Origin: Eledone cirrhosa
Lineage: Eukaryota
Reading direction: 5' to 3'
DNA length: 64,000 bases
Assembly (NCBI GenBank): GCA_964016885.1
Contig: OZ024747.1
Coordinates: 68,634,001 to 68,698,000 of the forward strand
Shown: positions 6,107 to 48,280 of the stretch, in pieces
Position numbering within the stretch: the first letter of the stretch is position 1
Layout of the letters: every line of letters starts with the position of its first letter
Program-made: the position numbers and the translations under genes
Notes under the pieces: generated by a model
Seen by the model: only the letters and a program-made list of their open reading frames with translations
Database searches by the model: none
What the model was told of the DNA's origin: nothing

Positions 6107-6158
<52 letters not shown>

Positions 6159-6353
6159 GGAGATGTGGTAAGGAACCAGATGGACCATAACACACCAAAG
6201 TACTCAATACTTAGAGGGGTAATAGGAACGAGTAGGACCCCGATGGCTGAGCTCAAGCCGTTTCGACGGCTAATTCTGGACTAAAAAAAATTTTTTTAGT
6301 CCAGAATTAGCCGTCGAAACAGCTTGAGCTCAGCCGTCGGAGTCCTACTCGTT

Positions 6354-6392
<39 letters not shown>

Positions 6393-6576
6393 CGAAGGAA
6401 ATGTGGTAAGGAACCAGGTGGACCATAACGCACCAAAGTACTCAATACTTGAGGTAGTAGAGTGGGTAATAGGAACCAGTAAGACCCCGACAGCTGAGCT
6501 CAAGCCGTTTCGACGGCTAATTCCCTGAATTAGCCGTCGAACCGGCTTGAGCTCAGCTGTCGGGGTCTTACTGGTT

Positions 6577-6622
<46 letters not shown>

Positions 6623-9600
6623 ATTGAAATCAATATGACAAAACATAGTTTCAAGATAAATTCTTGGTCTGCAACTGTTTCATTCAGAGATCATATTGTT
6701 ATTTAACATGTAAACATATAATTGTTTCATGTTGTACTCTGTGATAGTTTTAATAAATATCCTATTTTCTCCAACAGGAATGATGGGAGTGACCTCCTTT
6801 CGGTTCGGCTCAGTGAAATTTATCATCAGTTGGAAGCAATTGATGCAGACAAGGCACCAGCAAAAGCTGCTGTTATTTTGGCTGGTCTAGGATTTACACC
6901 AAAAATGCAGTCAATGTGCACAAGGTTTGCGTGAAAAAGTTTTCTTTTAACCCTTTAGCATTTACATTACTCTATATATACAATTGTATTTTCATGGTAA
7001 AATATGAATACCACAAAGTATTCTATCTGACGATGTTTCTAATGAGGGTAAATTCTCTGCCTTTTTTTTATAGGTACACTTAAATTAAACATTCCTGATT
7101 TTCCAGTATATATTGTGTTATGTATAAAATTATTTATACAAATTTAGTTATAGAGGTCAGGCATATTGTGTGTCACCTTTTGAAGAATTTTTATGAAATA
7201 TAGAAACCTTTCTTCTCCATATAATACTGAAGAGTATTTGAACTCTTAGTACTTACAATAGTGGTTTCTTATATAGGCACAAGGCCAGCAATTTTGGGGG
7301 AGGGGAAAGTCGATTAAATCGACCCAGTGCGTGACTGGTACTTTATTTTATCGACCCCGTAAGGATGAAAGGCAAAGTTAACCTTGGCGAGATTTGAACT
7401 CGGATCATAAAGGGCCGTAACTCTATGCTGCAAAGCATGTTGTCCGACCCTCTACCAATACTGCCAATCCACTAGTGGCATATACTGAGTCATGGTATTT
7501 TTAGAAATTATGTTTATTTTTTTTTTTGATCTTCAATTGAAAGGACATGCTTGGATTAACTTTAAATAGATTTTAATAATTTCTATTCAAAAGTTGTTGC
7601 TGTAAATAAAGTTGATTACTAGAGTACAGGCCATGTTCTATTGATTTATTGAAATGGTCCGTAATTATGTATTGATTCATATGAAATCCACACTGTAATG
7701 TAGTTGGCGTTAAGAGGGTCATCCAGCTGTAGAAACCAAGCCAAAATACAGATCCATATGAGCAAGACATAATCACTTGATCTGACTTGTCTCATAACGT
7801 GACAACCCATGCTAGTGTGGAATAGATGTTAAATGATGATGATTTCTTGTGAAGTGGAGGAATAACATGATTTTTAAAAAAATTAATTTTTGTAGAGAAT
7901 TTTCTGGTGGTTGGCGTATGAGATTAGCACTTGCTAGAGCTCTGTTCTCAAAGTAAGTTAAATTTTTCTAATAATTATTACATTACATTATTCTTTCTTC
8001 TTTTGTCTAGTAGTCTTTGCTCTTTCACTCCTTTTCCTCTCATTTAGTGCATTTATAGTCCTTTCTAATGCTGCTCTATTTTTCTGTATGTTTATATAAC
8101 TCTAATACGAAATAAAATTGTTTATTATGTAATAAAAAGATTATTACATCCCTTCTCTATTTATATTGAAAGCAAATTTTAAGAAATTACAAACACAGAC
8201 CTTCTTGATTTTTATTATACTTTAACTCTTATTGGATTATAAATTCTTATGTTGAATCTTAAAAAATTTGTTAATTTCAATTGTGAAATTAGGGATTGCC
8301 TGTTAATGTAAATAAGATACAAATTAAAAATTAAAAAAAGAATAAAAGCTCAGTTTTAACACATGTCATTGAAAAGTAATAGAATTTTATGAAAAAGCAG
8401 TTTTAATAGTCTTTTGAGATATTGATTATTTTGAATTCTTTATGGTAGTAGTTCCCAAACTTATGTTGTGTGAACCTTATACAATTTTCTGAAAATCGCA
8501 GAGCTCATATCTGTATTTTATTGACAATCCTCACCAATCTAGTTTTAATTGAGCTGGTTAATGTAGTGTTATGAAATGAATGTAATTATCTCACAGTACA
8601 AAAGTAGAATGTTTATGTAAATCATATATTCTCTATTGCAGTGATCCACAAAGTAGGAAAAATAAATTTTAATTATTCTTTTTATGAATAAATTTTCTCA
8701 CTAAAACAATTTAGTCTTGTTCAAAATAAGGTAGTTGTAGGGGTTGTTTGTAAAATATATGTATGCAAAGAGGTTAGTGATAGGAAGGGCATCCAGCCAT
8801 AGAAAACCTGCCAAACAAGGGGTTGGGAGGATTCTTCAGCTCTGTCAAGGACATGGCAGCCTCTTTAGTGCTGGTGCCATGATAAAATGCCCTCAGTAGT
8901 ATGTGGAAAGATATGTGACAGGCTGTCATCCTGTGTAAGCACTCATTAGGCGTGCAGCAACTTAGATGAGATACAGGCTTCTGACCTACTGTGAAGTAGG
9001 GCCTTAACTTAAAGTACCAACCAGGTTTGCTGATGACCAGTCCAAGACTAGTTGGGAAAGCAGATGTTAAATGAAGGTAGTAATGATAATGTGGTTCCAT
9101 GATTTAGGGAAAATCATAAGAGTTCTGTAATAAAATAAGTTTGGGAATCACTGCTCTATTGTATTCCATTTATCAGTTAAATACATTTTAGACTTTGAGT
9201 ATTTCTATTGAAATATTCCACTGCTTATGTTTCAATTTATTTTGAAAAGTTTGAATGGATTTAGTAAAACAAATAACATCTCCACTACTCAGCTACTGTT
9301 TGAAGCAAACAAAAGTTCCTCACATAAAAAAAGCTATAATGGAATGTTTTAATTTAAATGTGGACACTTTAAAATAAGAGGTTTTATATTATAGAACTGA
9401 GTCGGCTTAAAATGATTTCTATGTTATTCTTTTGACATTTTTTTCAAAGTCTATTAAAAAACACTAGCAGAAAAACCATCCTTTTGGTGGTTTCTGCTGG
9501 CATGTGTAGTGTGCATATTGATATTATATGCAAATATACATGTATGTAGATATATGTCAAATAAAATCGTAAGTGACAATAGGCACAGAAATTGAAGAGA

Positions 9601-11823
9601 GACTATGTTACAGTGTCTTCTGTAATCAGTAAAGTAATCCATGATATATTTTAAAAAGTCGATATTATATATAAACTGCACTACAGTGAAATGTAATGAA
9701 AACGAAAAAGGAGAAAATTAGCGACAGAAATATAAACTTTATATAACGATGTAAATATATGAACGTTTACATAAGCGATGTGATGAGTGTTATGATATAA
9801 CAAACGCTAACCGGAAGTGTAGACATTTGAAAATTTTTTAAGAAGTGAATCTTAAAATAAGCAATCATTATAAATAAAAATATTTATGTTTAATCAACAG
9901 CTACGAAATGTAGTAGATACATTATGTAATATTCATTCATTATTTACTCAAAGTAATCTAACTTATTTTACTAACGAGATAAAAAAAATATATTCAGGAT
10001 ACAGTACCACACTCCTCCTTTTATTATATTATGATTTGGTATATTCTTGACATTGATTTATCTTATTTCTTTCTAGGCCTGATTTACTGTTGCTTGATGG
10101 TATGTTTCACTTTATTTTGTAAAGAGTTTTATTATTATTAATTTTTAACCCATCCTGCCACTGTCCCTTCATCTCTCACTGTTGCATACTTGAAGGCTGT
10201 TGTGCATTGTGTAGCTATGTAAAATAACCTATTGGTTACTACTCATAAAACATTAAATATAGCTATCATCATAATGTGAGACGAATGTCACAAACAGTTT
10301 TGCCTGGGTCCTTATATTTCATTTCATGGCTAGAAATGAATCATTTGTCTCTCAGCTAATAATGATAGGCCTCCAATGTCAAATAGAGTGAGACAACAAT
10401 TGACGTAACATCTCAGTCACATCTCTAAAACTTGTGGTCTCTGCACAAAATGGGAAAATGTTAGGAGACTTCTGCCACCAACTCACAACTGGTAGACAAA
10501 CAATAAGAACAGATTGAAGTATTACAAGGCAAACTCTCTTTCATTGTTGTTAACTCTTTAGCATTTACGTGTAGGTAACATGGTAAAAAGTTCCTAGTCC
10601 ACGCTGTAAATGTGGACTAGGAAAACCTGCCGAATAGTCCTATACGAGCGAGACACGGTCACCCGACCAATCTTGCCTCAAGTGAGACAACTCCCGTCTA
10701 ACCCATGCTAGCGTGGAAGATAGACATTAAAGGATGATGATGTTACTCTATATTTACTATTGTAATTTTGTGGAAAAGGCTTTACCTCACAATATTGAAT
10801 CTATGATATTTTGATATTATTTATTTTGACAACAATGCCTTAACATAAGTATGAGTGGTTGGTTACAGCTGGTTTGAACAGAAAGAAGTGAGAGAATTCT
10901 AGCCAGATATGACTGGTTTAAATGCTAAAGGGTTAAACTTTTAAACACTATATTTTACTTTACAGAACCTACAAACATGTTGGATATGAAAGCTATAATT
11001 TGGCTGGAAGATTATTTGCAGGTAATACATAAGAATATATCTATTTTTGTTACTGCTATTAATCTTATTCATTAGTAGATTGAAATGTGTACATTAGCCT
11101 GGTTTGTGAATTGAACCCATGACCTTGCCATCTGGAAACAAACACTCTAACCATTAGGCTATGCACCTTGGCATACACTCACACTATGCTTGGGCAAAAC
11201 ACGAATATTATCACAGCTGGAATACCTTTGATTGTAGTAGACCAACTGCTTACCAACACCAGTTTTACTACAGGAACCAGTTGCAAACCGGAAATGCATT
11301 GTTTTTTTTTTATTTATAGTTGTGCATGTATTGTATTTTCATGTTTTTCTGTTTAATCTTAATTTTGAAAATGTCAATGATTTAATTATAATATTGTTTG
11401 TAGAGGTGCATCAAATGAAAAGCTCTGATGTTCATTCTGAATGTATTATACTTGTCTATTCACTCCTAGACATGGGTATCAACAATTTTAGTTGTATCTC
11501 ACGACAGACAGTTCCTAAATGCAGTTGCCACAGATATCTTATACTTACATAGTGGTCGAATTGACACCTACAAAGGAAATTATGAAACATTTATGAAGAG
11601 TCGTGAAGATAGATTGAAAAACCAACAAAAAGAGTATGAAGCTCAACAGCAATACAGAGAACACATTCAGGTATGTGTGTATATACTTATATATAATTTT
11701 GTCCTGGCGCCCGATGAGAGACCAGTATCGAAATGGCTTCTCCACTATACAGTGGAAGCCATAACTGGACCCCAAAATCTAAGGTCGCGCATTCATGTTA
11801 AGTGTTTGAAATTTTAATTATAC

Positions 11824-11854
<31 letters not shown>

Positions 11855-12439
11855 ATAGTAATAATAATAATAAATACAAAGACCATAATCTCGAGAAGAC
11901 TCTATAAGGGTTGCTCTACAGGTTTATACATAAGTATGTATAAACCTGTAGAGCAAATATATATTATTAGCACAGTTTAAAAGTTTAAAATAGAATGATG
12001 TAATTAGATTTTTTTTTATTCTCTTTGCATATATTTCACTGTATCTCAAGAACGTTTTTACACGTTACCATTATCTTTTTCTATTTTTTTAAGGCAATAT
12101 TTATTCGTAATTTTTTGGGGAAATATTTGCAACTGCATCTGCAAATTGATATTTCTGAGTTTCAGAAGGTCTTCCATTAGGGTGAAAGCAGAAATTGTTT
12201 GCTTAAACTTTTAATCCTAACTAATAATATATTACTTGGACAGTCGGCTTCCTGATGATTTTTCCCGAATGAAACAGTTCTAGTCCTCTAGAAGCCATTT
12301 CTATATTAAATATGTATACTCTGCTATGTATTGAGTACCTTACTTACTGTGGCTACCCCCGATTGAACCCGGGATAAACTTTTATATATATATATAGTGA
12401 CGAAACATAAGCCAATTGTATGAACTCATACAATTATAT

Positions 12440-12470
<31 letters not shown>

Positions 12471-13772: not shown

Positions 13773-13832
<60 letters not shown>

Positions 13833-28050: not shown

Positions 28051-31000
28051 GGTGTCACTTTTTGAAAATGTTCTTGTATTCGGTTATGCAGTTGGCATTT
28101 CACGGAACTGATGTAATTAGCTCTGCATGCACAGTTCAACTCATACACTACATGGTATCTCAGGCATATTGGTTTTGTATTATTATTGTAGCTAATTCCT
28201 GTGGTAGTATGTTCTCTGACAGGGTATCTCCAAAGACAGCAGGCGTCTTCTTCAATGTTCTGTGTGAGGTATTGTCTCAACATTCTTCCATGCTTTGTTA
28301 CTCACACTGAGAGGCCTGATTTTTTTATGTAACTTTGCAGGGAATTTTATGTCTGTTCTTCTTGGTATGGGAGATCAATGTAGGCCCAGGTTTTGTCTCC
28401 CATTTCTTTTTCTCCTTGGTGTTGTGTCTTTTGTCATTGTTGTTGGTTTGCAAGTGGTTGTGGTTGCTATTAGGACAAAGGTGGTGCTTGGTGTTGGCAT
28501 GTGGTGTTTTAGGCTTTGTGTATATGCTGAGTCTGGGTGGAGGAAGGCATCATAGTCTGCCAGTAACATTGTATCAACTAAAATATATGTATTTTTAGGT
28601 TATTACAATTTTTTAATATTTCATAATGATAGCTGGAAATGATTTGTTACATAAGCAGCAATTAACTTATATTTTGACTACAAAGATAATGAAATTGTTG
28701 AGACCACAGCGAGAATAGGAATTGATTTTTGTGTAGTAGAAACATGTGTTACCGTACAGCCAACAATTGCCAAGATTGACTATCACTATAAGTGTTATCA
28801 ACACTTCTGTAACATTAGGAAAATAAGGATAAAAGAGAGAAAAACTACAAAAAGAAAAGTTATATGTATATATATAACATTGTTGTAAAAAAAACAGCAT
28901 TGCAAAATATTTTTCCTTTCCTTAATCAGCAAATATTTTATGACTGGTCACAAATTCTACTAGAAACAACTTCAAAGAGAACTATAGCTGCATGCAAGAT
29001 ACATCATGAACCATTAAGAGTCACAATGTAAAAATAGAGCTAAAACACAATTGCCAAAATATAGAACTCTTTCCATAAAATATAAATGTCTATTATAAAC
29101 ACTCTATATCATGTTGTTGTCTTTAACATATATATATAAGCTATATATAACTTACAGACCATACATTTGAAAGTTGCCTGCTCCAGAACAATAGCTCATA
29201 CTTTCACCACAATCTACAGACTACTACAATCCTTATTTCTTACTCCCCGCCTCTAACACACATATGTGTATACATGTATTCATGTGTGTGTGTTAGTGTA
29301 TGTGTATGTTAGTGATGGGGACAGTCCATAAATCAGTGCATCAGATACAAACATCTTGTGGTATTTGATTTGTACTGAATTACTTCTCTTAGGTGGACAT
29401 AGAGATTGATAAAACGGTTAGCAGACAAAGTACTAGGGTCATTGAATTCCTTGGGAGTTAGTGCCTCAACTGGGTTGCTGTTCAGAGACTAAAACCAAGA
29501 AAAGAATTAGAAAAAAAGATTTTTATCTTGAATATCCAGATTGAGATATCACAGCTCCGATACTATAGGCATGTGGTTAGAATTTCTCAGGAAAGAATTG
29601 CTAGACAGATTTTAGGGGCGAAACTAACAAGTAGGAGACCCAACCAAGCAAGATGGTTGGCTAACATCCATGAGCTTGGTTGGTCACGCCTGGGGATCCA
29701 ACTGGATCAGTTGGAGACAGTTGCTTCTGACAGGACCCACTGGAGGGAGTGTTTGAGGACTGCCGTAATGACTCTCTCATGAATAAGTGAGCAAAGAAAA
29801 GGAGAAGATATTCTTTATTTGGAATCATGGAAGCTTATATACCTGCACTATACTTATATAAATTCATCTAAAAATGTTTGGCTATATAACTCTGTAGGTG
29901 ACAATTTGTATATAATAGTAAATTTGTAACTGGCAACTTTAACAAGGTATAACATTTTGTAATGGAACTTTTGTAGATGTGAAGGTTTTGTCTTAGTAAT
30001 AAAATTACTCTCCCCATTCCTCGTAAGATCTGAATTTATGAAAATTAGAACACAAATCACTGAGAATTTCTTGACTAGAAAAAGAAATGTTTGCCTCTGT
30101 CTGACAGCGAAGGTGACAAAAACTGTTGTTTTACAGCTCAATTCTATATTCTATTAAGCAACAACAGAAAAATCAATGAAACTGAATTTGCTTCCTATGT
30201 CAATGTTTCTGATGGCATGTTAAAATCATAAGCAAAAGTAAAATGAAGTAATTGCATTTTATTTAGAATTGCTTTCAGAAAGCATTTCAGAGTTGTCAGA
30301 ATAGATTAGTAGGTGTGATGCTTCATTGTTCAAATGATTGGTGAACTGCAAATTTGCCTTCAAGGAATGTCAATGTGTGTATGTGATGATATAAAATCAT
30401 TGTTAATCTCAAAACCAGCCTGAAAGAAGCTCAATTTAATTTTTCATTCCAATTCCATTTCATTTTAGAAGAAAAAAGTTTAAAGAATAAAATTAATTAA
30501 GTCATGATATGAAAAGTAAATTGTGGAGAAATCACATGGTAGAGAAGTGAGATTAGCTTGGTAGGTTCAAATCCACAGCATGTATTTTGTTGCATTTCTA
30601 AATAGGTTGTTTTCTATTCTATATTGTCTCAGTTCAGCTATTTGCTGGTTTAGGAATCGGATCATTCAGAAAATTTATTGAAGATAGTTTTAACTGCAAG
30701 AAAATGTATTCCTCATCTATTAACACTGGTCAGTCCGAGCTGAGGATCCGCATAAGGTGAAACAGTCATTCTCGGTATGGTGAACTAACTGTTGTGTAAC
30801 CATTTCTACCAAACTCGTCCCATGGACTGAGTGCTCTACCACTACGGATATTACCTTCCAGTGTTCTACTATTATATATATTATAAAGTTTAAAACAATC
30901 AAAACTATGTTCAATACATTTTATTGCTGACAATTGTTTCTTCCAAACAGCCGTTTGGAGTCATCGGAGCATTGGTAAAGTTTAAACACAAATTAAGTTC

Positions 31001-31389
31001 CTATTCCATAGAAAAATGATAAAGATACGTTGATATTATTGTTGCTATCAATAGTGTTGTATTCAATGAGAGTGAGGATGTTGTGGTCTGTAGCAATGGG
31101 TATAATAAAGATTATAAAAGAATTATAAAAGGTTATTCTCAAAGGAGGACATTAGTGGTACATAGGCATATAGACAGTAAGAGCGCAGAGGTATCAAGCA
31201 TATACAGAATAACATGGAAAAGAAAGCAAAGGTATTAAGTATATATGTGATATCTTTGCCATATTATGCTATATATACTTTGCTTTCTTTTCCATGTTAT
31301 TCTGAATTACAGGGAAATACATTTACCTTTTACATACTCAATATGTACATTTTTTAATACACATTTACACAGTCTTGGTTACCTCTGTA

Positions 31390-31421
<32 letters not shown>

Positions 31422-31567
31422 ATACTTTGGGAGGGTCATGTTGCCAATAAGAAACACATGCACCAGTTACTTTCACTTCAATTTATTATAATAAATTTAT
31501 AAATTTAGGAATTTATAAATTTCCGGTTGGTTGGTTGGTTCCACAACCAGATGGTTGTTTATATATT

Positions 31568-31610
31568 GTCAAAGTTCTTTCGTCACACACTCTGTGACCT
31601 CTTCAGTGAC
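31568..31610 (-). ncRNA. Minimal hammerhead motif in the PLE 3'UTR (left arm)
   Basis: Mirror copy of 34111-34153. Confidence 0.7.
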
Positions 31611-31812
31611 TGGGGATTCTTTTCTTTGTTTTTTGTGCCTCTCCTTTGTTCTGTCCTACGCCATCTTGTTTGTGTGTGTGTGTTGTGTGCTTAGTTTGCG
31701 CATGTGTTACATCCGGGTGTCTGTGTGTGTTTATATTCGTTTATTTATTTGTTTATTTACATGTTACTGGTTGGTTGTTTGTTCTATGTGCGTGTGTGTT
31801 TTCATTTTGTCC

Positions 31813-33162
31813 TTAATTGTAAGTTGTGATGTTGCTGTTCCACTCATGTTTTCTATTTAATTTTGGTTGTAATTCATTTATGTTTATTGCCTCTGTGATT
31901 TGTCTAAACATTGCGTCTTTTCTGTGTGTAGATTCTATTTTTATTTCTATGTTCTCTAATTTACCCTTATGTTCTATTTTAGCATGTTGGTAGAGTACAG
32001 ATGATTCTTTACTATCTTGAAGGTCTCGCCAGTGTTCATTTATCCGTTCCCCTATACTACAAGCTGTCTCACCTATGCACACTATATTTTTATCTCTACA
32101 TTGTCCTTCAGTACATCTTATGCTATATACTACATTTCTAGTTTTACAGTTAATATGGGGGCTTAATTTACAGATTATACATTTCTTATCTATACAGGGA
32201 GGTGTTTGAAAAGGGTATGTCTTGCTAATAAGTATTTTTATGGAGGTACCTGGCATTTCTACTATCTTAATATTGAGTTTATGTTTATCTAGGGCCCTTC
32301 TAAATTTGTAAGCTAATTCACCTCTAGGGGTTGTATCGATGAACATTACACTCTGGTATTTATTGCTATCATACCATGAGTTTATTCTATTAGCCTCATT
32401 CCTAGTTCTTTCTATTCTATTCCAAAATTTGCTCCTATACAAGGGGCAGGTCCCATTTATGTCATTATTTACCATTTTTTCCCATTTGGTTCTGGCTCCT
32501 CTATACACTCTGATTTTATCTCTCTGATTGTAACCAGAGAACTGCATACGGTGGATGAAGTGTTGTATGTGTCTCTCTAGTTCTTCGGGGTTGCACATAC
32601 GGGACATGTTTCTCATCACCCGTACCAAATCCGCAATCAGTATGTTGATTTTGGTATGGTCCGAAACAGCTGAGTTTCGGTGGATCAGATATTTGGAAGT
32701 CATGGGTTTGGCATAATGGGAATGGAGGATTTGTTTTTTGTTATTAATGGTATCTAACCAGAGCTCTGTGTCTAGTACAGGTAATCGATGGTTGGGGTGT
32801 TTGCTTGGGTAGTCTATAGTAACTCTAATACTCTGGTGGATGGAGTTAGCTATTTGCTGGATGCTTTCCATTGTGTTTTTCTCTAATTCCTGACTGTTCT
32901 CTAGTGGGGGTGTTTTAACTACGATGTTTATATCATCAACGTAGCGGGAATACATTGTCAGGGTTAAGGGGTCTTCTAATTGTTCTTTAAGTTTAAGTTT
33001 AAGTCTACTGTCCCACCATACCATGAATAAGTTAGCTATGTCGCCTGCAATGCTAACACCAATGGCTGCTCCCTCCTCTTGGGCATATGTTTTTCCATTA
33101 AATTTGAACATATGTTCCTTAAGGGTTAATTTTATGCTAGCCCCCACCGCATGTGCAATCAT
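31813..33162 (-). CDS. PLE reverse transcriptase (C-terminal part), Cys linker and GIY-YIG endonuclease; truncated
   Basis: EGAAIG, YSRYVDD, LPVLD, CxxxxCxxC linker, NVVYSIRC...IGET. YIG is mutated to CIG and R to C in this arm. Confidence 0.88.
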   Translation of the reverse strand: MIAHAVGASIKLTLKEHMFKFNGKTYAQEEGAAIGVSIAGDIANLFMVWWDSRLKLKLKEQLEDPLTLTMYSRYVDDINIVVKTPPLENSQELEKNTMESIQQIANSIHQSIRVTIDYPSKHPNHRLPVLDTELWLDTINNKKQILHSHYAKPMTSKYLIHRNSAVSDHTKINILIADLVRVMRNMSRMCNPEELERHIQHFIHRMQFSGYNQRDKIRVYRGARTKWEKMVNNDINGTCPLYRSKFWNRIERTRNEANRINSWYDSNKYQSVMFIDTTPRGELAYKFRRALDKHKLNIKIVEMPGTSIKILISKTYPFQTPPCIDKKCIICKLSPHINCKTRNVVYSIRCTEGQCRDKNIVCIGETACSIGERINEHWRDLQDSKESSVLYQHAKIEHKGKLENIEIKIESTHRKDAMFRQITEAININELQPKLNRKHEWNSNITTYN

Positions 33163-33170
33163 TTTCTTTA

Positions 33171-33908
33171 GTATGCAGTTCTCTGGTTACAATCAGAGAG
33201 ATAAAATCAGAGTGTATAGAGGAGCCAGAACCAAATGGGAAAAAAATGGTAAATAATGACACAAATGGGACCTGCCCCTTGTATAGGAGCAAATTTTGGA
33301 ATAGAATAGAAAGAACTAGGAATGAGGCTAATAGAATAAACTCATGGTATGATAGCAATAAATACCAGAGTGTAATGTTCATCGATACAACCCCTAGAGG
33401 TGAATTAGCTTACAAATTTAGAAGGGCCCTAGATAAACATAAACTCAATATTAAGATAGTAGAAAGACCAGGTACCTCCATAAAAACACTTATTAGCAAG
33501 ACATACCCTTTTCAAACACCTCCCTGTATAGATAAGAAATGTATAATCTGTAAATTAAGCCCCCATATTAACTGTAAAACTAGAAATGTAGTATATAGCA
33601 TAAGATGTACTGTAGGACAATGTAGAGATAAAAATATAGTGTACATAGGTGAGACAGCTCGTAGTATAGGGGAACGGATAAATGAACACTGGCGAGACCT
33701 TCAAGATAGTAAAGAATCATCTGTACTCTACCAACATGCTAAAATAGAACATAAGGGTAAATTAGAGAACATAGAAATAAAAATAGAATCTACACACAGA
33801 AAAGACGCAATGTTTAGACAAATCACAGAGGCAATAAACATAAATGAATTACAACCAAAATTAAATAGAAAACATGAGTGGAACAGCAACATCACAACTT
33901 ACAATTAA
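33171..33908 (+). pseudogene. Inverted duplicate of the PLE thumb/GIY-YIG region
   Basis: Intact VYIGETARS, but an extra A in the A-run near 33240 relative to the left arm. Confidence 0.85.
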
Positions 33909-34110
33909 GGACAAAATGAAAACACACACGCACATAGAACAAACAACCAACCAGTAACATGTAAATAAACAAATAAATAAACGAATATAAACACACACAG
34001 ACATCCGGATGTAACACATGCGCAAACTAAGCACACAACACACACACAAAAACAAGATGGCGTAGGACAGAACAAAGGAGAGGCACAAAAAACAAAGAAA
34101 AGAATCCCCA

Positions 34111-34153
34111 GTCACTGAAGAGGTCACAGAATGTGTGACGAAAGAACTTTGAC
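34111..34153 (+). ncRNA. Minimal hammerhead motif in the PLE 3'UTR (right arm)
   Basis: GTCA CTGAAGAG GTCACA GAATG TGTGAC GAAA GAAC TT TGAC. Confidence 0.7.
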
Positions 34154-34884
34154 AATATATAAACAACCATCTGGTTGTGGAACCAACCAACCAACCGGAA
34201 ATTTATAAATTCCTAAATTTATAAATTTATTATAATAAATTGAAGTGAAAGCAACTGGTGCATGTGTTTCTTATTGGCAACATGACCCTCCCAAAGTATA
34301 ACAATATCAGTTTCAACACACGTTTTCAGATAAAGAATCTTGCTAAACAAATTCAGAAACGAAATATATATATATATACATATATATATCATCATCATCA
34401 TCATCATCATCATCATTTAATGTCCATTTTCCACGCTAGCATGGGTCTGATATATATATATTTATATATATACATATATATATTTATCATCTACTTTGGC
34501 TGCTTACTGCAGAACTTAACAAATACTCCTGTATTATAAAGAATTCTGAAAAAAAAAGAGGTTTAATCATGGAGGTGATACTTTTATCACATTGTGGTGC
34601 CAAGATCAATATCTAATATAATGTTAGCCACACAAACAGTATATCTCTAATGGTCAAACTTTAAGATTCCAACTCTGGTAAGAAAAACCATTAGAATGCT
34701 AGCAAAGTAAGAAAAACTGCATATAACATCATAAATGATATATTCCTACAACAAAAGATGCAGTAAAAATAAGCTAATAACACCTCCAATGAAATTAAGA
34801 GAGAAAGCTAGATAGAGAGAATGGAAGAAAGAGAGAGAGACTAAGGGTGAGAGGGGAGAGAGAGATGGGGAAAGATATAAATAA

Positions 34885-35594: not shown

Positions 35595-38500
35595 ATTGGA
35601 ATAAATGCTCTGAAATAGCGATATATATGTGAATATAGACATAGGATATTCGAAAATATTCTGTATGTTTATAATAAACATTTTGAAGACCTAATCGCTA
35701 TAGAATAGAATACGTCACGTATTACAATTAGATTCTCGATAAAAGCAAGGGAAGTAATCTACGCGTTTCATTCTCGTTAGAAATCATCAGGACTACATAT
35801 CCAGTGCTTTTATCGAGAATGACACAGCTAGAGACTTATAGAATACTTAGCTGTGTACAGGAACTGGTTTGAAAGAGCGGTTGCCGGTCCGGCAGAAATT
35901 AGAAATTGGAATAAATGCTCTGAAATAGCGATATATATGTGAATATAGACATAGGATATTCGAAAATATTCTGTATGTTTATAATAAACATTTTGAAGAC
36001 CTAATCGCTATAGAATAGAATACGTCACGTATTACAATTAGATTCTCGATAAAAGCAAGGGAAGTAATCTACGCGTTTCATTCTCGTTAGAAATCATCAG
36101 GACTACATATCCAGTGCTTTTATCGAGAATGACACAGCTAGAGACTTATAGAATACTTAGCTGTGTACAGGAACTGGTTTGAAAGAGCGGTTGCCGGTCC
36201 GGCAGAAATTAGAAATTGGAATAAATGCTCTGAAATAGCGATATATATGTGAATATAGACATAGGATATTCGAAAATATTCTGTATGTTTATAATAAACA
36301 TTTTGAAGACCTAATCGCTATAGAATAGAATACGTCACGTATTACAATTAGATTCTCGATAAAAGCAAGGGAAGTAATCTACGCGTTTCATTCTCGTTAG
36401 AAATCATCAGGACTACATATCCAGTGCTTTTATCGAGAATGACACAGCTAGAGACTTATAGAATACTTAGCTGTGTACAGGAACTGGTTTGAAAGAGCGG
36501 TTGCCGGTCCGGCAGAAATTAGAAATTGGAATAAATGCTCTGAAATAGCGATATATATGTGAATATAGACATAGGATATTCGAAAATATTCTGTATGTTT
36601 ATAATAAACATTTTGAAGACCTAATCGCTATAGAATAGAATACGTCACGTATTACAATTAGATTCTCGATAAAAGCAAGGGAAGTAATCTACGCGTTTCA
36701 TTCTCGTTAGAAATCATCAGGACTACATATCCAGTGCTTTTATCGAGAATGACACAGCTAGAGACTTATAGAATACTTAGCTGTGTACAGGAACTGGTTT
36801 GAAAGAGCGGTTGCCGGTCCGGCAGAAATTAGAAATTGGAATAAATGCTCTGAAATAGCGATATATATGTGAATATAGACATAGGATATTCGAAAATATT
36901 CTGTATGTTTATAATAAACATTTTGAAGACCTAATCGCTATAGAATAGAATACGTCACGTATTACAATTAGATTCTCGATAAAAGCAAGGGAAGTAATCT
37001 ACGCGTTTCATTCTCGTTAGAAATCATCAGGACTACATATCCAGTGCTTTTATCGAGAATGACACAGCTAGAGACTTATAGAATACTTAGCTGTGTACAG
37101 GAACTGGTTTGAAAGAGCGGTTGCCGGTCCGGCAGAAATTAGAAATTGGAATAAATGCTCTGAAATAGCGATATATATGTGAATATAGACATAGGATATT
37201 CGAAAATATTCTGTATGTTTATAATAAACATTTTGAAGACCTAATCGCTATAGAATAGAATACGTCACGTATTACAATTAGATTCTCGATAAAAGCAAGG
37301 GAAGTAATCTACGCGTTTCATTCTCGTTAGAAATCATCAGGACTACATATCCAGTGCTTTTATCGAGAATGACACAGCTAGAGACTTATAGAATACTTAG
37401 CTGTGTACAGGAACTGGTTTGAAAGAGCGGTTGCCGGTCCGGCAGAAATTAGAAATTGGAATAAATGCTCTGAAATAGCGATATATATGTGAATATAGAC
37501 ATAGGATATTCGAAAATATTCTGTATGTTTATAATAAACATTTTGAAGACCTAATCGCTATAGAATAGAATACGTCACGTATTACAATTAGATTCTCGAT
37601 AAAAGCAAGGGAAGTAATCTACGCGTTTCATTCTCGTTAGAAATCATCGCTATAGAATAGAATACGCGTTATACGCGTTTCATTCTCGTTAGAAATCATC
37701 GCTATAGAATAGAATACGTCACGTATTACAATTAGATTCTCGATAAAAGCAAGGGAAGTAATCTACGCGTTTCATTCTCGTTAGAAATCATCAGGACTAC
37801 ATATCCAGTGCTTTTATCGAGACTACATATCCAGTGCTTTTATCGAGAATCTAATTGTAATACGTGACGTATTCTATTCTATAGCGATTAGGTCTTCAAA
37901 ATGTTTATTATAAACATACAGAATATTTTCGAATATCCTATGTCTATATTCACATATATATCGCTATTTCAGAGCATTTATTCCAATTTCTAATTTCTGC
38001 CGGACCGGCAACCGCTCTTTCAAACCAGTTCCTGTACACAGCTAAGTATTCTATAAGTCTCTAGCTGTGTCATTCTCGATAAAAGCACTGGATATGTAGT
38101 CCTGATGATTTCTAACGAGAATGAAACGCGTAGATTACTTCCCTTGCTTTTATCGAGAATCTAATTGTAATACGTGACGTATTCTATTCTATAGCGATTA
38201 GGTCTTCAAAATGTTTATTATAAACATACAGAATATTTTCGAATATCCTATGTCTATATTCACATATATATCGCTATTTCAGAGCATTTATTCCAATTTC
38301 TAATTTCTGCCGGACCGGCAACCGCTCTTTCAAACCAGTTCCTGTACACAGCTAAGTATTCTATAAGTCTCTAGCTGTGTCATTCTCGATAAAAGCACTG
38401 GATATGTAGTCCTGATGATTTCTAACGAGAATGAAACGCGTAGATTACTTCCCTTGCTTTTATCGAGAATCTAATTGTAATACGTGACGTATTCTATTCT

Positions 38501-38866
38501 ATAGCGATTAGGTCTTCAAAATGTTTATTATAAACATACAGAATATTTTCGAATATCCTATGTCTATATTCACATATATATCGCTATTTCAGAGCATTTA
38601 TTCCAATTTCTAATTTCTGCCGGACCGGCAACCGCTCTTTCAAACCAGTTCCTGTACACAGCTAAGTATTCTATAAGTCTCTAGCTGTGTCATTCTCGAT
38701 AAAAGCACTGGATATGTAGTCCTGATGATTTCTAACGAGAATGAAACGCGTAGATTACTTCCCTTGCTTTTATCGAGAATCTAATTGTAATACGTGACGT
38801 ATTCTATTCTATAGCGATTAGGTCTTCAAAATGTTTATTATAAACATACAGAATATTTTCGAATAT
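35595..38866. repeat. 310-bp tandem array with one hammerhead per unit (retrozyme-like), internally inverted
   Basis: Units start at 35595, 35905, 36215, 36525, 36835, 37145 and 37455. Scrambled junction at 37649-37850. About 3.3 reverse-complement units follow to 38866. Flanked by (TA)n. Confidence 0.95.
38072..38160 (+). ncRNA. Representative array hammerhead (also 38382-38470, 38692-38780 on +; 35732-35820 and every 310 bp to 37370, plus about 37735-37822, on -)
   Basis: ATTCTCGATAAAAGCA..GTAGTC CTGATGA TTTCT AACG AGAAT GAAA CGCG TA GATTAC..TGCTTTTATCGAGAAT. Predicted cleavage after GUA at 38132. Confidence 0.88.
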
Positions 38867-39722: not shown

Positions 39723-39750
39723 CACATATATATATATATATATTGTTATA

Positions 39751-39896
39751 TATTGTTATACTTTGGGAGGGTCATCTTGCCAATAAGAAACACACGTGTG
39801 TTTCTTATTGGCAACATGACCCTCCCAAAGTATAACAATATCGGTTTCAACACACATTTTCAGATAAAGAATCTTGCTAAACAAATTCAGAAACAA
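39751..39896. mobile_element. Fold-back mini-derivative of the PLE terminus
   Basis: Same two termini as 31415-34364, but the hairpin is centred on CACACGTGTG. In (TA)n. Confidence 0.85.
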
Positions 39897-39931
39897 AATA
39901 TATATATGTATATATATATATATCTCTCTCT

Positions 39932-41305: not shown

Positions 41306-42151
41306 TAGCGGCGTGCAGAGCTCTGGTAATGTCCGGGGTGAATCTTGATTGTATGCCCCAAAGACTCAAGTATAAGGCCTAATATACTGAGAAATATTAT
41401 GAGAAAGGAAAATATTTTGAATATATAAACACAGATGAAACATGAAATAAACGCTTTATTAGATTTTAATATAAACTAGTAGAATGGCCCGGCGTTGCTC
41501 GGGATTCTAAACATAGATTGGCATGTTTATCCCTCTTTTCTGAAACAGTACAGAGAAGTACAGAATACCTCGTGAAATAAATACCTTTGTTTATATTTTG
41601 ATTTTGCAAAATATCAATCTGTGAACGCAGAAGTAGATATTTCGAAAAACACTGCGACCGAAGGAAAACAGGAAGACGATACTTTGGTTCGTGAAGACGT
41701 TCCCTGGCAATGAACGAAAAATAGCGAAGATAATACGTCAGCAATGAGAACAATATATATATACACACACAGATAGAGAAGTCAAGGTTTTCATGATGTC
41801 GTAATGCAGACAGATATTATAAGGGCACGATGTTTTAGCTATGTATCTATCTAAAAAGACAGACTAAAAAGAGAGAGAGAGATTACTAAATCCCTAATGC
41901 TGTCCATAGGGCATTGAAAATTTGAAATATGTTTTGCTTAAAACACTCACACGACCATAAGTATTACATGTGTAAAGTTTGAAAAAAAGCGGTTGGGTGG
42001 TTCTCGAGTGTTAGGGAGACAGTCAGACAGACATTCTCTGTTTTAGATATCAATCAAATTTATTAAGTTGTTTTCCCCAAATGATGCACCCATCCAAAAG
42101 ATGCCCGGGGCCAACGCACCGTGCCCCCCCCCCCACCCATGTACGCTACTG
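41306..42151. mobile_element. hAT non-autonomous element with nested Helitron
   Basis: Perfect 8-bp TSD ACTAGGGA (41298-41305, 42152-42159). TIR TAGCGGCGTGCA / TGTACGCTACTG. Confidence 0.75.
41476..42048 (-). mobile_element. Non-autonomous Helitron
   Basis: A|CTAG end with CCCGGCGTTGCTCGGG hairpin, ACAG repeats near the other end. Confidence 0.65.
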
Positions 42152-42614
42152 ACTAGGGAGCTTTCTAGGTGATCACTCTACCTGTTAGAAACAGCAGCCA
42201 AATCTGCTTTAAATCACACCCTAATATCCCTGAAAAAGAAAAAGGAAAAATAGGAAAAGCACTCTGGATAACGTAGTTTCAGGTATTTCGTTTAAACAAA
42301 AGACCGACTGGTAACGGCTGGAAGATCTGTGACTAAACAATGTGTGAGACCAGAGACTTGACTTGGAGCTAAACAAGAGAGGGAGGGGAAATATTGTTTT
42401 GCTATTGGATAGCTTACCTGTGTAAAGAAAGAGAAAGAGAGGGAGAATCGATCTTGATACCGTACACTTTCTTCACCACCACCAGCGTTGCCACTGTCAA
42501 CACTACCAGCATCTCCTCTACCACCATCCCCACCAACATACCTCCACTATCATTGAAACTGTAAGCCGCAACAGTGGTAGCACCATCATTATCACTACAC
42601 ACACACATATTTAT

Positions 42615-42648
<34 letters not shown>

Positions 42649-44694
42649 TGTTGGTAAATTGCTCATGTATAACAACGCACTACATTCACACACAAACACA
42701 AACATAACATCTCGACATACATACACACACAATCACGCTACAATATAACAAACTACACGTGAAACAATTTACTTTCTGATTGATTCAACTGTGGAAATTA
42801 TCGGAGACAAGAAACAAAATAATGACACATCAAGAAAATACTATTATATTAACGTGTTTTCTATTTATATTACTGGAAAATAAATAGTATAATATTTTGA
42901 CAATTAAAACAAGCTGTGTGATTTCTAAACAACGATGTTAACCCCAGAGAGCAACGTCGCTGAAAAAAACCGTGCGCAATCACATGTTTGGGGTAAGTTC
43001 GTTGTTTTGTTTAGAAACTTTTTCATTTTATTACAATTGTATACATTTACAGTAGAATGACATGGTAAATATGTTTTAAATATATACATAAATAACATTA
43101 TCAATGCGTAAATAACATTATAAATTGTTCGCAATTCATTCAGAAGGACATTACAAATATAATGTCTAAACCGTGTATAATAACACAATAATATAAATTC
43201 ATTGAACAAAAATGATAAAAGAAAGAAAAAAAAAGAAGAAAAAAGAGGAGGGGCGGCATTGACTACCAAGTGCGATAATCGGCCGCACCGCACACTTTAG
43301 GGGTTAACTACAGACTTGAGGCAAGCCAACACGCTCGCAGCATTACAAAGGGTGATGGCGAGGCTAAGGTTTTGTTTTGTTCGGTAGTTTTCAATTAGTC
43401 AACTTAATTCACAATTGTATAAATAATATTTACAAATAAAAAAAAAAAGAAGAGGAAAAGAAAGAAAACACACACACACAAGCAGGTAATACACACATCT
43501 TGGACCACATGTATTAAAAAGTAAGCGAAAGGGGTGGACAAACGCTGCCTGAACAAAAGATAACAATATTATAAGAAGGAGCTAAAGTACCAGTCACGCA
43601 CTGAGATCGATTTAATCGACTTTCCCCTCCCCCAAAATCACTGGCCTTGTGCCTATATAAGAAACCAATATTATAAGAAGGAGCACTATGCTCCAACTTG
43701 GGCTTTGATGTGATGGCTAAACAAATCGAATAATTAAAGAACTAACCCCAAAAAAGGAAAAAAATGGTTGACAAAATGGTTCATTGAAGAAATTGTCTTG
43801 TGGGTATTTTGTTCCAATCTTTTACATTCTGATTTCAAATCCTGCTGAAGTGATGTCCACTTTACTTTTCATCCTTTCGTCGATAAGATAACGTACCTGT
43901 TACTACTGGCACTGATTTAAATTCCATTATTGTTATATCATTATACATGATAGAATTGGGACCCTTATTATTAAAACACTTAACCTCACAGAAGTCTGAC
44001 TAAACCTACGCAAGTGTGAGCCATATCAACAGCAAACACATTGTTGCTTCTACCTGATAAATTAAGATAGACAATAATTGTTTCTACTTTTGGCACAAGG
44101 TCAGCAATTATCCCAGCGTATTACTGGTACTTTATTTTATCGACCCCGTAAGGATGAAAGGCAGTTATTGTTGGGGGTTATGGGTTAATTCAAATTTTCT
44201 TTTCAGTTTGTATGGCTGTTAATCTGGAGTTAATTAATTACAGAAAACTGGTTGAATTAACCCTAACCCAAAAACTCTAACACTTAATCCCAACCATAAA
44301 CCCTTAAGTTAATCCCTAACCCTAACCCCTAACCCAAATCCTTAAACCTAACCACAACCCTAATTTGAAATAAATTAGCTTGGATTATATTATTGTCTTA
44401 TATCAATTTACCATGGGGCAGTGTGCATTCTGGAGAAGTCTCCAAATATCATATTCCGATAATGGATCACAGATGTGATTGGAATTACAATAAAAGATAT
44501 TTCTTTTCTTACAAGGGTTATTGTTTAGATATAACCATAACTCCAAGGAAACGTCTACTAAAGAACTTTTTTCCTTCCCTTTCTTCCCCCTTTTCTCTCT
44601 CCCTTTTCTCCCTTCATTCCTCTCTTTCCCTTCTCCCTCACCCTCATTTTCTATATTTATTTTAATTTTATATATTATCATTAATTGTTAGTAA

Positions 44695-45452
44695 AGCCGG
44701 CTGCCCTGAGGACGGTCGCCAGGTATTGATGGTCAACCCTATCGAAAGCCTTCGATTGATCTAAATCAGGGGTGTGCAACATATTCCATTGGCGGGGGGC
44801 CACTTTTGAACATTGGAACAACTATTAGGGCCATTAATATTTATTAAGCATTCCAAAGATTCGCCACAACTTCTTTCCATAACATGGAACTGGGAAATTA
44901 TAACACACATAACCCTATCAGTGAAGCCCTTTAGTATAGGTCAACTGGGAAACTATAACACACACAACCCTATCAGTGAAGCCCTTTAGTATAGGTCAAC
45001 AGAAAATTGTATTACGCTTACGAAAAAATTCTAAATAAGCCTACAAGGTAAAAATCATTGTGGGCCACTCTGACTGATTTGGCAGGTCAGATTGTGGTCC
45101 ACGGGCTGCCTGTTGCACGCTCCTGATCTAAATTGATCAGGACTCCGCCAATGCCAGGTTCCTTAGCTACCCTCTCTATGATGTATTGCATGAGGTAGAG
45201 GTTGTCTTGGATGGATCTCTTGGGAATGGCGCATGTCTGCGCTTCTCCCACAAGACTCCCGACGACAAGTGCCAACCTTGTTGCTAATATCTTGACCAAA
45301 ATTTTGAACTCTGCGTTCAGCAGGGTTATGGCCCTGAAATTATCTACATTGTACTCTTTATTTGGGTCCTTTCTCAGCAGTGCCACCACTCCTCGGCTCA
45401 CAGAGCTGGGAATTCTCTCGATCTGCTGCCAGTTGCAGTAGCCATCTACCAA
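44695..45452 (-). mobile_element. L1/Tx1-clade RT fragment split by a hAT insertion
   Basis: NFRAITLLNAEFKIL...GVLINLD continues after the insert as QSKAFDRVDHQYL. Confidence 0.85.
44767..45125. mobile_element. hAT-Charlie-like MITE
   Basis: Perfect TSD ATCTAAAT. TIR CAGGGGTGTGCAAC / GTTGCACGCTCCTG. Internal tandem duplication of about 55 bp. Confidence 0.88.
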
Positions 45453-45975
45453 GAGGTCTATTATCATTAATACTATTATTATATACGAGGTTAATGAAAT
45501 AAAGTACCAGTAATGCACTGGGGTTGATTTAATTTACTTTCCCCTCCCATTCAAATTGCTGGCCGTGTGTCTATAGTAGAAACAATTATTATTATTAAGT
45601 TTTTTTCTCTCACTTCTTTTCTCTTTCTTTTCTGATGCAAATCCTCGAGGAATCCAGCCTCTACATCCCCAGAACCCCTTTCAATCATGTTTATTTCAAT
45701 ATTTTAAACTTATTTTTATCCTTTTATTTACAACCCCTAAAAAACAATTTTGTTCTCTTGATACAAGGGGTAAACACACACACACACACACACATACCAT
45801 GAGACAAAAGATCAATTCTATATCCACACCTAAACTGACCTTTCATCACAATTAAACCCACTTTACCCCCCCCCCATTAAAAATGCCATCTGGCCATTAA
45901 TATTAATTGTAAGAACACTTTCTATTTTTTACCAAGAGGATTCAGTTGAACCCCACCTCCACCTTCACCACCACA

Positions 45976-46274
45976 CACAGGCGTAACTAGAGTATGGCAA
46001 GCATGGCATGTGCCATGGGGGGTCACATGAAGGAGGCGCCACTTGGACTAGGAGCACGTTCTATTAAAGTCAAATAAGCCTCGTTGGAGAGTGAAAATAG
46101 AAACTCCTTCAGATGTATGATCTGTGTTTGATTATCAAGGGTGAGAACACTGTGGTGGCTGGATCATTAAACCATTTATATAAATTATTAGACCCATAGG
46201 GAAAAATACAGTGCTGGGCAGGGGTGCAATTTCACTGCTTGTCAGAGGTGCTATTTTCCCTAGTTAGGCCTCTG
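45976..46274. mobile_element. hAT MITE
   Basis: TIR CACAGGCGTAACTAG / CTAGTTAGGCCTCTG. TSD ccaccaca/ccaccaaa. Confidence 0.7.
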
Positions 46275-46599
46275 CCACCAAACCTTCATAAAGAGCATAT
46301 ATATAAAAATAAATTTTGACAGAAAACTCACATATATTTGAACTGCTCACAGAACACATGAAAAAACATAAAAAAAAAATTTAATATCTAATATTTGATA
46401 AGATTCTTATACCAATCGAAACCAGTTATATTTAATGAAACAATTATAAAATTATTCATTCTATCAGATTAAAGAAAACAATCTTTAAATATACTTCTGT
46501 GCATTTTCACCTTCACTTTTTAACTATAATCTTTGTTTTGTATAGAACTTTACCCCACTTTTTCAAGAGATGGCAACATGAATGGACCTGTTATTTTTC

Positions 46600-46780
46600 G
46601 CTAAAAACCTTTTTTTCAAATTCCACTCCACCTGTCCCTTCAATCTTTCTAATTTCTCATCCTTTCTTTTGATGAAGGACTAGCGCTTGAAACGTTAAGA
46701 ACCTCTTCCTGCTATTTCAAGCGTTAACCTAATATATTCCTGCCATATACTGTACCAATTGTGTTATTTCTGTTTACCTT
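46600..46780 (+). mobile_element. Dispersed repeat with decayed hammerhead (copies also near 52910-53050 and 62940-63112, reverse)
   Basis: Three mutually alignable copies. Inferred consensus CTT CTGATGA AGGAC TAGC GTCC GAAA CGT TA AGA. Confidence 0.65.
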
Positions 46781-46817
46781 TTACATACATATATACACAC
46801 ACACACACACACATATA

Positions 46818-47585
46818 TCATCATCATCATTTTACATCCATTTTTCCACGCTAGCATGGGTTAAACGAGTTGTCCTGTTGTGGGCAATGCTAGGTCAGGT
46901 GACCATGTCTTGCTCATACAGAACTGACTTTGGCTTAGCTTCTACAGCTGTCATCCTTCATATGCATCACATGTTCATACCAACATAATCTCCTCTCTTG
47001 CACACAGCATTTGATTCCTCTTATGCCAAGTTTCTCTCTCAGTTTGTTTGTTTTGTCATTCACATATATTACTATTACACATCCATTGGAGCATGCAAGC
47101 TTCATTTTTTTCCAATCTATGCAAAGTCTCACTACCATGCAACATTGCTGTTCATATGCATGCATCATACAGTCTGCCCTTCATTCTGAGGGAAAAGCCT
47201 TTTGTAGCCAGCAGTGGTAGTAGGTCCCCGAACTTCTTCCATCCCATTCTTTCCCTGGTTACTGCACTTTCAGCACATCCCCTCTGCTACTAATTCGGTT
47301 ACCCTGGTAGCAGAAACTGTTTACTCTTTCTACCAAGCCCTCCCAGAATTTGATAGTGCTTGTTTCCTGTAGTTGTTTGCTGCTTACTGCTTACTGTCGG
47401 TGCAACTGTTACATGTAAAACCTACATTTTTAGCTAAACTTCCTGAGATCCCACTACATCTCTTGTGTTCACATAGTTTGCGTAGAGGATGGAATTTCTC
47501 TCTACACCTTTCCTACATACTGAGTAAGGCCATTTCCCTGAGGGGATATGGGTTCTGTTTTCTCTTCTTTATCAAGTTGACTTTA
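46818..47585 (-). mobile_element. Degenerate RTE LINE 3' part
   Basis: LREKLGIRGIKCCVQERRL, PHD remnant, (TCA)n tail. Confidence 0.8.
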
Positions 47586-48280
47586 TGACCCCTTCTTTCT
47601 TATATATATATATCAGAATGAAGTAACAGAGTCAGAAACTCACGCTAGTCCCTGTAATTCATGAGCTCAAAGGAAAAAGAATCCTGGGCTCTACAAATAT
47701 AATATAGAGAAGAAAACACTAGAGTGTGTGTGTTTATCAAGTTACAGGGAATACCACTAGTGTATGGAACCGAGTTTGTACATGTGTGATATATAGTTAT
47801 AAAGATGGGTTCTGTCATTTTAATTTATATTTTTAATTATAATGTATCTGACTCACCTTTCTAAGTTTATATGTTCCATATGCTAGTGGTATTCCCTGTA
47901 ACTTGATAAACACACACTCTCTCTAGTGTGTTTTCTTATCATCATCATCATCATCACCGTTTTTACGTCCGTTCTTCCATGCTAGCATGGGTTAGACGGG
48001 TTGTCCTGTTGTGGGCAGTGTCTGGTCGGCTGACCATGCCTTGCTCATACAGGAACTGATTTGGCTTGATTTCTACAGCTGGATGCCCTTCCTAACACCA
48101 ACCTCATTTACAGTGAGTGCTGGGTGCTTTTTTGCCGTGGCACCTACACGACCACTTTACAGTGGAATGATATGGACCCCAGTCCCTATCATCTCATTTC
48201 TACAGCTGAGTAAACTGGAGCAATGTGAAATAAAGTGTCTTGCTCAAGGAAACAACACATCACCCGGTCTGTGCCTCCAT

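Follow-up and report, generated by a model that had tools for sequence, protein, structure and literature searches.

A 310-nt retrozyme of Eledone cirrhosa lies in (TA)n tracts as two outward arms and is likely inserted in trans by a Penelope-like element enzyme

Several sequences in a 64,000-nt stretch of the Eledone cirrhosa genome (C7:68,634,001-68,698,000 of a 3.0-Gb assembly; the whole stretch is called the window) are inserted in (TA)n as two inverted arms, one exceeding the other by a short unpaired tail, raising the question of whether this shape reflects one enzyme serving many elements. They include a Penelope-like element (PLE), a miniature copy of it, a tandem array of a hammerhead-bearing 310-nt unit, here named R310, and several small fold-backs. 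The first-pass annotation attributed all of them to a single PLE machinery, with reverse transcriptase (RT) and GIY-YIG domains, mobilising non-coding ribozyme RNAs in trans. This observation was confirmed in part, as the geometry is real and genome-wide, but some elements were mis-delimited or misclassed. As read from sequence, R310 is likely a retrozyme without long terminal repeats (non-LTR), placed in (TA)n as two outward arms by a PLE RT/GIY-YIG enzyme acting in trans, and the other elements are not the cargo of one machine but ends of autonomous PLEs, from two clades or more, and of unassigned PLE-like families. Thus, the common shape would arise because several PLE-type families target (TA)n, and not because one enzyme serves all.

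The R310 array occupies positions 35595..38866 of the window, with (TA)n on both sides, and has a left arm of ~6.6 units on the minus strand with its long end at 35595, a rearranged centre (37620-37850) and a right arm of ~3.3 units on the plus strand with an atypical short end. The unit has 310 nt and a GC content of 35%, is non-coding (longest stop-free stretch of 59 aa) and bears one type I hammerhead motif, with a helix I of 6 bp, a helix II of 4 bp with a U-U base and a palindromic helix III. As called by a dedicated motif scan, the array carries 10 such motifs, 3 on the plus and 7 on the minus strand, including one at 38090..38146 (plus) with CUGAUGA at 38102, GAAAC and a predicted cut after GUA at 38132; an Rfam search gave no hammerhead match for R310, returning hairpin-type noise alone. 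The predicted fold of the monomer is stable (z -3.5), folding alone being no test of self-cleavage or circles. With a hammerhead in each tandem unit, a non-coding sequence of 170-400 nt with GC below 50% and dispersal over many loci, R310 has the marks of a retrozyme, and its AT-rich unit and co-occurrence with PLEs resemble the animal non-LTR retrozymes (PMC7229834; bioRxiv 10.64898/2026.07.22.740005). Counted from the predicted ribozyme cut, the left end of the window array is at monomer position 165 and the right end at ~114, leaving a tail of ~51 nt. The left end annotated as ~50 nt longer is therefore right for this copy but atypical, as the usual short end of the family is position 131, leaving a 34-nt tail, with long-end variants at ~165-172. 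The short end at ~131 is followed in the native unit by ATATATAT, and the ends, 131 and 165 nt past the predicted cut, are not on the cut itself.

When exact end patterns abutting TA were searched over the whole genome, 1,152 long and 1,191 short R310 ends were found, and a chance control with reversed patterns gave 0 matches. Contig C1 up to 222.5 Mb holds 84 long and 100 short ends, forming 54 outward long+short pairs within 20 kb; five further close neighbours are inward or same-strand long/short combinations, and among these ends there are zero close long+long or short+short pairs. The first 30 long-end loci comprise 26 that are two-armed with long+short ends by sequence, 2 by end position, 1 running into a gap and 1 single-armed, and 40 unpaired short ends comprise 26 with a variant long end, 3 whose partner would lie beyond the fetched stretch and 11 single-armed copies. 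Pooling the two-armed loci with both ends visible, 65 of 67 are long+short with 3' ends outward, the remaining 2 reflecting a fetch edge and a second neighbouring element; two of these loci, L232 and L243, are probably one element duplicated across a gap. Tabulated over the genome, the ends are fixed per family, with family-specific tails of 34 to ~100 nt, and the outward orientation of the 3' ends, already annotated, holds in the window and in paired R310 loci.

One two-armed R310 locus lies within a host repeat, and its empty paralogues hold a short TA tract only. At the filled site L332:470-1560 there are ~24 and ~20 nt of TA on the two sides, compared to ~10-16 nt in total in the empty paralogues, the tract having grown at or after insertion. 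A target-site duplication is indistinguishable for R310, because the target itself is (TA)n.

The two arms carry further information on how they were made. Across the 65 two-armed loci, the long-ended arm is the longer in 31 and the short-ended arm in 27, with a Spearman correlation of 0.23 between arm lengths (p 0.07); lengths this near to independent indicate that neither arm is routinely copied from the other. The modal unit variant is common to both arms in 41 of 48 loci and identical between loci in 62 of 1,128 pairs (27 variants), no fixed difference between arms was seen in 30 R310 loci, and units inside young loci differ by 0.10%. The inner junctions show short overlaps or microhomology, or short templated inserts. 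The use of two different RNAs per insertion was considered and dropped, since the arms proved to have common haplotypes. Two reverse transcriptions of one repeating template are the simplest reading of these sequences, and the arm data favour double priming on such a template.

Built on the ends, pairing, orientation, common haplotypes, independent arm lengths and target read directly from the loci, the proposed mechanism adds an RNA intermediate, its circularity, the nicks, a dimer and the identity of the enzyme. An enzyme, probably a dimer, would nick both strands of a (TA)n tract. A single RNA would have two fixed start sites, each with a short AU run, and each nicked 3' end would pair with one of these runs and prime reverse transcription. 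If the template is circular or multimeric, synthesis from either site could pass more than one unit, producing two tandem cDNAs of independent length, whose free ends would then be joined via microhomology or a short templated insert and their second strands filled in. The tail would correspond to the distance between the two start sites. Contigs of four runs include 340-nt unitigs of the monomer, which tandem DNA would yield too and which are no sign of circles. A search among RNA runs listed none that holds the repeat, which has no bearing on expression.

Regarding the other elements, a self-comparison of the window reproduces the inverted arms and tails at 31.4-34.4 kb, at 39.75 kb, in the array and in the 6-kb pair, and all 3' ends of these elements face outward into (TA)n. 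A strict fold-back test, which misses several of the listed elements, is passed by 3 of 42 TA-run sides in the window and by 16 of 2,097 random anchors. The first large element, PLE family A, is of Neptune/Nematis type and spans 31414..34364 as two 5'-truncated arms head to head, with the short end on the left and the long end on the right. The minus arm encodes the C-terminal half of the RT and the GIY-YIG domain in a 457 aa frame (31813-33186), and the plus arm (33171-34364) carries the tail at 34308-34364. Positions 31414-32549 and 33171-34307 are 98.9% complementary, and the tail, annotated as ~58 nt, is 57 nt long. A minimal hammerhead is found at 34108..34155 on the plus strand (CUGAAGA at 34115), with a mirror copy near 31592 on the minus strand. 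The mini-element at 39750..39897 has the same short and long ends, its 39750-39841 portion carrying the family A tail, and is a stump-sized fold-back copy of the 31-kb PLE, as annotated. In the window PLE, the short-ended arm has ~620 nt absent from the long-ended arm, the reverse being seen in other copies.

The class marks of such PLEs are present in family A: one open reading frame (ORF) with RT and C-terminal GIY-YIG, a CX2-5CxxC linker (CIDKKCIIC), a GIY-YIG core (VYIGET), a CCHH motif and a hammerhead, with Cys and His positions read from sequence and an RVT_1 match only below the Pfam cut-off. Its best named relative is a protein of Octopus bimaculoides (55% identity). The short end lies at -57 in 13 of 30 fetched loci, most of the others being too long to view or single-armed, and both ends fall within codons 1-30 of the ORF, a placement known from the anole PLE as well (PMC11167929). 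Subfamily A2 is younger, with open frames of ~1,190-1,240 aa, arms 0.55% apart in the 7 cleanest of 12 pairs and the long+short signature in 11 of the 12. In three loci (L112, L304, L305) the family A protein starts with a long region of low complexity, rich in Thr, Asn and His, which recalls the Asn-rich inserts of rotifer PLEs (PMC3846280). A fold-back at 31202-31390 (arms 31202-31307), with ~83 nt before the (TA)n flanking the PLE, is possibly another family with the same geometry.

The 6-kb pair belongs to a second PLE, family B, of the Hydra clade. The copy at 6157..6358 derives from an older subfamily and has a 65-nt tail, with an internal deletion relative to ~80 nt, and that at 6391..6581 derives from the young one and has a 78-nt tail, both tails being as annotated; in each truncated fold-back the long end is on the left, and the arms lie at 6222-6358 and 6469-6581. 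Positions 6391-6522 are identical to the young subfamily in 132 of 132 nt. Family B reads upstream into an ORF with Hydra motifs (HSDKTG, CNCPDRSIC, CNLC and CKH), and the young element has an intact 3,531-bp unit with a ~780-aa ORF and arms 0.13% apart (13 of 14 pairs). Full-length open ORFs occur in copies of both clades, among them A2 copies at C2:132.07 Mb and C11:10.05 Mb and the young Hydra unit at C1:437.2 Mb. More than 120 of 150 matches to the Hydra protein have a single common score and belong to the young subfamily, a burst younger than that of family A. As described by Craig et al. 2021 (PMC8557442), the clade has a C-terminal endonuclease, DKT, a CxCX5C linker, CxxC and CxH motifs and a (TA)n target, all of which are found here; family B differs in its 3,531-bp unit, compared to the usual <3 kb, in RWR instead of RWK and in a hammerhead whose helices I-III are drawable but whose core reads CUGAGAAG or UUGAGAAG and is non-canonical. 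Long+short ends were seen in 16 of 16 young loci covered end to end, selected as inverted pairs or tandems, and in at least 21 of 30 Hydra minis. In one locus (L370-L371, G000:C1:437.198-437.214 Mb) an arm consists of ~3.5 tandem full-length units, with 3,530 of 3,531 positions equal between two, which suggests that the autonomous element, too, is copied from a template that is circular or multimeric.

In most Hydra minis (L070-L098) the fold-back point is the same A/T run, located ~140 nt before the 3' end and frequently accompanied by a poly(A)/poly(T) filler of variable length; this run is offered as a favoured stop or joining point. Next to the 6-kb pair, positions 6782-6925 hold an exon-like stop-free frame, DGSDLLSVRLSEIYHQLEAIDADKA..., which we take to resemble an exon of an ABC-F-type gene, Pfam giving no match; if this exon is real, the 6-kb minis would be intronic or just upstream. 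Four of the seven listed elements are ends of protein-coding PLEs and not unrelated non-coding RNAs, and the annotated community of non-coding ribozyme RNAs is not supported, the 39.7-kb mini and the 6-kb pair being truncated PLE ends.

Three further families have their own paired ends, with tails of ~102, 93 and 78 nt in families C, D and E. Family C is old and extends over 11860..12232, with a minus arm at 11860-11990 bearing the long end, a plus arm at 11990-12232 bearing the short end and a tail of ~100 nt. The annotated element of 11860-11956 with a ~50-nt tail was thus mis-delimited; the hairpin at 11911-11956 is local to the window copy, other copies having a TA run there. No clear hammerhead core is found in family C. 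A single-armed family E end, missing from the annotated elements, follows at 12233..12382 (plus), with a type I hammerhead (12252) and the long end at (TA)n. Family D is a fold-back at 47613..47940, the 3' part of a ~520-nt hammerhead-bearing tandem unit, with the long end on the left; the tail suspected there is real (~85-93 nt), but (TA)n adjoins the left side only. No PLE ORF was found upstream of families C, D and E in six stretches fetched. These families could be 3' ends of unsampled PLEs, and family D, given its tandem unit, may be a second retrozyme.

Other segments of the window resemble these ends. Between simple-repeat tracts at 62933-63112, 63130-63378 and 63406-63570 there are three short segments with hammerhead-like cores (CUGAUGA or CUGAAGA, then GAAA-like), in which additional PLE-type families likely end. 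At 12397-12434, two TA runs enclose a 38-nt insert, with a 10-bp inverted pair and a leader containing GACGAAAC, which is perhaps a minimal stump. Isolated type I hammerhead-like motifs occur at 2060-2150, 30730-30775 and 30920-30975; of these, the minus-strand motif at 2139 is part of family E and lies away from any TA run. In seven loci (L043, L045, L066, L074, L127, L261, L311) different families stand end to end within one TA tract, suggesting that each insertion provides targets for later ones. Locus L261 was considered as a family E/R310 chimera and rejected, because a TA run separates the parts.

As for the enzyme that moves R310, homology, chimeras and ages were compared. A retrozyme derived from a pLTR (pseudo-LTR), as in Li et al. 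2026, would share homology with the pLTR of a resident PLE, and R310 has none with family A or Hydra, the two PLEs sampled; with family E it shares a 28-nt hammerhead-core match only, in line with the resemblance of the two cores. In one chimera (L037, C1:188.84 Mb), the short end of the retrozyme is joined directly to the long end of A2, with a templated insert of 6 nt at the junction. Its arms differ by 1.8% and 2.2% from their respective peers, indicating a similar age; this structure is compatible with a single insertion event. The older R310 subfamily differs by 0.75% within loci, close to the A2 age, and the young one by 0.10%, close to the Hydra age. The two chimeras found point to different families. 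Family A is the slightly favoured candidate partner, the Hydra family is almost as probable and an unsampled PLE family seems rather unlikely; partners differing at different times are possible. The array bears the PLE signature at scale and lacks homology to family A and Hydra alike, which is best read as mobilisation in trans by a PLE enzyme. This part of the annotated proposal is supported, and one machinery for all the listed elements is not. The insertion anatomy of the array is strong circumstantial evidence for PLE dependence, implicating the PLE class and not a particular enzyme, so that the annotated "direct evidence" was overstated.

A number of observations weigh against this reading. 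Compared with family A and Hydra units, R310 gave nothing better than E 0.6, and the likeness of tails is no better than in shuffles (452/1,000 for R310 and PLE A; 170/1,000 for family E and Hydra). Just 2 chimeras were found in ~145 loci examined, the second (C1:328.81 Mb) joining the retrozyme short end to 24 nt of the Hydra short end with a 6-nt microhomology; it was the one new case from a hunt over 40 unpaired short, 20 unpaired long and 50 older-subfamily ends, and its polarity is the wrong one. As its short+short polarity is of the deletion type, a deletion could explain the C1:188.84 Mb chimera too. Single-armed R310 copies occur, as in the 11 of 40 loci given above, one Hydra mini (L079) has two long ends, and the unit variant is partly arm-biased in locus L225. 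Identical arms could also stem from two RNAs of one expressed haplotype or source locus, or reflect later gene conversion. Moreover, R310 loci were picked via one exact end pattern, under-sampling other end types, and the start sites of the anole PLE are described as lacking homology to the cut DNA (PMC11167929), unlike the AU match proposed here.

Other explanations were weighed against the same data. If the 31-kb family were a (TA)n-targeting PLE that alone mobilised all listed elements in trans, this would agree with a geometry and target common to all, with the L037 chimera carrying a PLE A long end and with the lack of an ORF in the fetched stretches of families C, D and E. However, the 6-kb minis are ends of a Hydra PLE with its own intact unit and ORF, a second autonomous PLE, which refutes this idea for that pair as non-coding cargo; tails differ by family (34, 57-60, 78, 80, 93 and 102 nt) without significant likeness in sequence, their apparently common motifs being no better than shuffles, and the Hydra burst is younger than that of family A, making a single machinery very unlikely. 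Self-priming as the origin of the inverted arm is also unlikely. One strand would serve as template for its own folded-back end (the antisense-template model, PMC3846280), or fill-in of a DNA hairpin would make the second arm, leaving the tail as a resolution scar. This would account for identical haplotypes on both arms, junctions often with microhomology or internal stems and many hairpin-like minis. A copied arm cannot exceed its template, yet either end type can be the longer, and the ~620 nt extra in the short-ended arm of the window PLE, reversed in other copies, would make the choice of template random.

The arrays could also have been inserted by a non-PLE route, such as a (TA)n-targeting LINE or the repair capture of extrachromosomal circular DNA at (TA)n breaks, their likeness to PLEs being convergence. 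(TA)n tracts are fragile, R310 has no homology to PLEs and its junctions resemble end joining. Nevertheless, repair capture would not yield two base-exact ends and a strict one-of-each pairing at >1,000 sites, no poly(A) end was seen, and the tail is described as common to and unique to PLEs (PMC11167929), so that this route is considered highly improbable. As inverted repeats are hard to assemble, and L232/L243 look like a duplication across a gap, the fold-backs might be library or assembly chimeras, which is hardly conceivable given that ends are specific to families and haplotypes to loci, that (TA)n lies to either side, that flanks are unique, that the arms of aged copies have diverged and that empty paralogues exist. 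In contigs of one public run, TA likewise comes directly after the PLE short end at 34307, the independence of that run from the assembly not being established. Returning to double priming by PLE enzymes, a wider and more speculative version would be that all PLE-type insertions of this genome arise by double priming, each on one RNA circle, with one complex starting rolling-circle reverse transcription twice, from each target strand at its own AU-rich site. The retrozyme might then be a minimal parasite whose start sites evolved without PLE ancestry and which can switch PLE clades, from a Neptune-type one earlier to Hydra at present. The young Hydra element would be inserted likewise from a 3.5-kb circle.

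The insertion geometry itself, an inverted truncated copy with a tail, has already been published for PLEs (PMC8557442, PMC3846280, PMC11167929), including 30-40-bp tails and (TA)n targeting (PMC8557442). The anole PLE was shown to cut and extend both strands, its RT starting at two sites whose spacing defines the tail (PMC11167929), and self-priming was proposed and trans mobilisation via pLTRs reported elsewhere (PMC3846280). Circular templates, and PLEs as candidate partners of retrozymes, have been put forward too (PMC7229834, PMC7761336, PMC4209133), and Li, Clavereau and Pollet 2026 (bioRxiv 10.64898/2026.07.22.740005) report retrozyme-PLE co-occurrence and pLTR homology. For animal non-LTR retrozymes, earlier work proposes a spread via circular RNA and PLE enzymes and links them to PLEs by co-occurrence and pLTR homology. 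R310 differs from the tandem-repeat retrozymes described there in being mostly head-to-head and two-armed in (TA)n, in its two fixed ends and in lacking homology to both PLEs found; a two-armed, two-end architecture for retrozymes was not found in the literature searched, subscription journals, Repbase and preprint supplements being outside its scope.

The elements described here resemble endonuclease-bearing PLEs in their head-to-head arms, fixed tail, start sites located past the hammerhead, where the ORF begins, and AT-rich or (TA)n target. However, tails published at 30-40 nt range here from 34 to ~100 nt by family, and wherever the continuation of a start site is known, the site falls on a short AT run that matches the target; in addition, the arm lengths and haplotypes argue against the self-priming model of PMC3846280. 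Another parallel is found in non-autonomous Chlamys PLEs such as MRC1 (PMC8557442), which, like R310, are non-coding, with PLE-type insertions and often several head-to-tail copies. These Chlamys elements generally resemble the 3' end of their autonomous partner, and canonical hammerheads are described as not found in most Chlamys elements, whereas R310 has a hammerhead and no such resemblance.

A comparison can also be drawn with L1 elements, in the light of the double priming favoured here. In L1 twin priming, both target strands prime on one RNA, producing an inversion, and the second primer lies at variable upstream sites, giving two parts without overlap. In contrast, both sites are fixed here, and both arms copy the same region.

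The elements are of known kinds, and what is new is the evidence on how retrozymes and PLE inversions form. Both the enzyme that moves animal retrozymes and the origin of the inverted repeats and tails of PLEs are stated as open in earlier studies (PMC7229834, PMC7761336, PMC8557442, PMC3846280). More than 1,000 young copies now give evidence at the level of single insertions, namely fixed paired start sites, one haplotype per locus and independent arm lengths. In addition, the genome of E. cirrhosa holds near-identical open ORFs of two candidate enzymes together with a 310-nt substrate with predicted start sites, making the proposed dependence directly testable in vitro.

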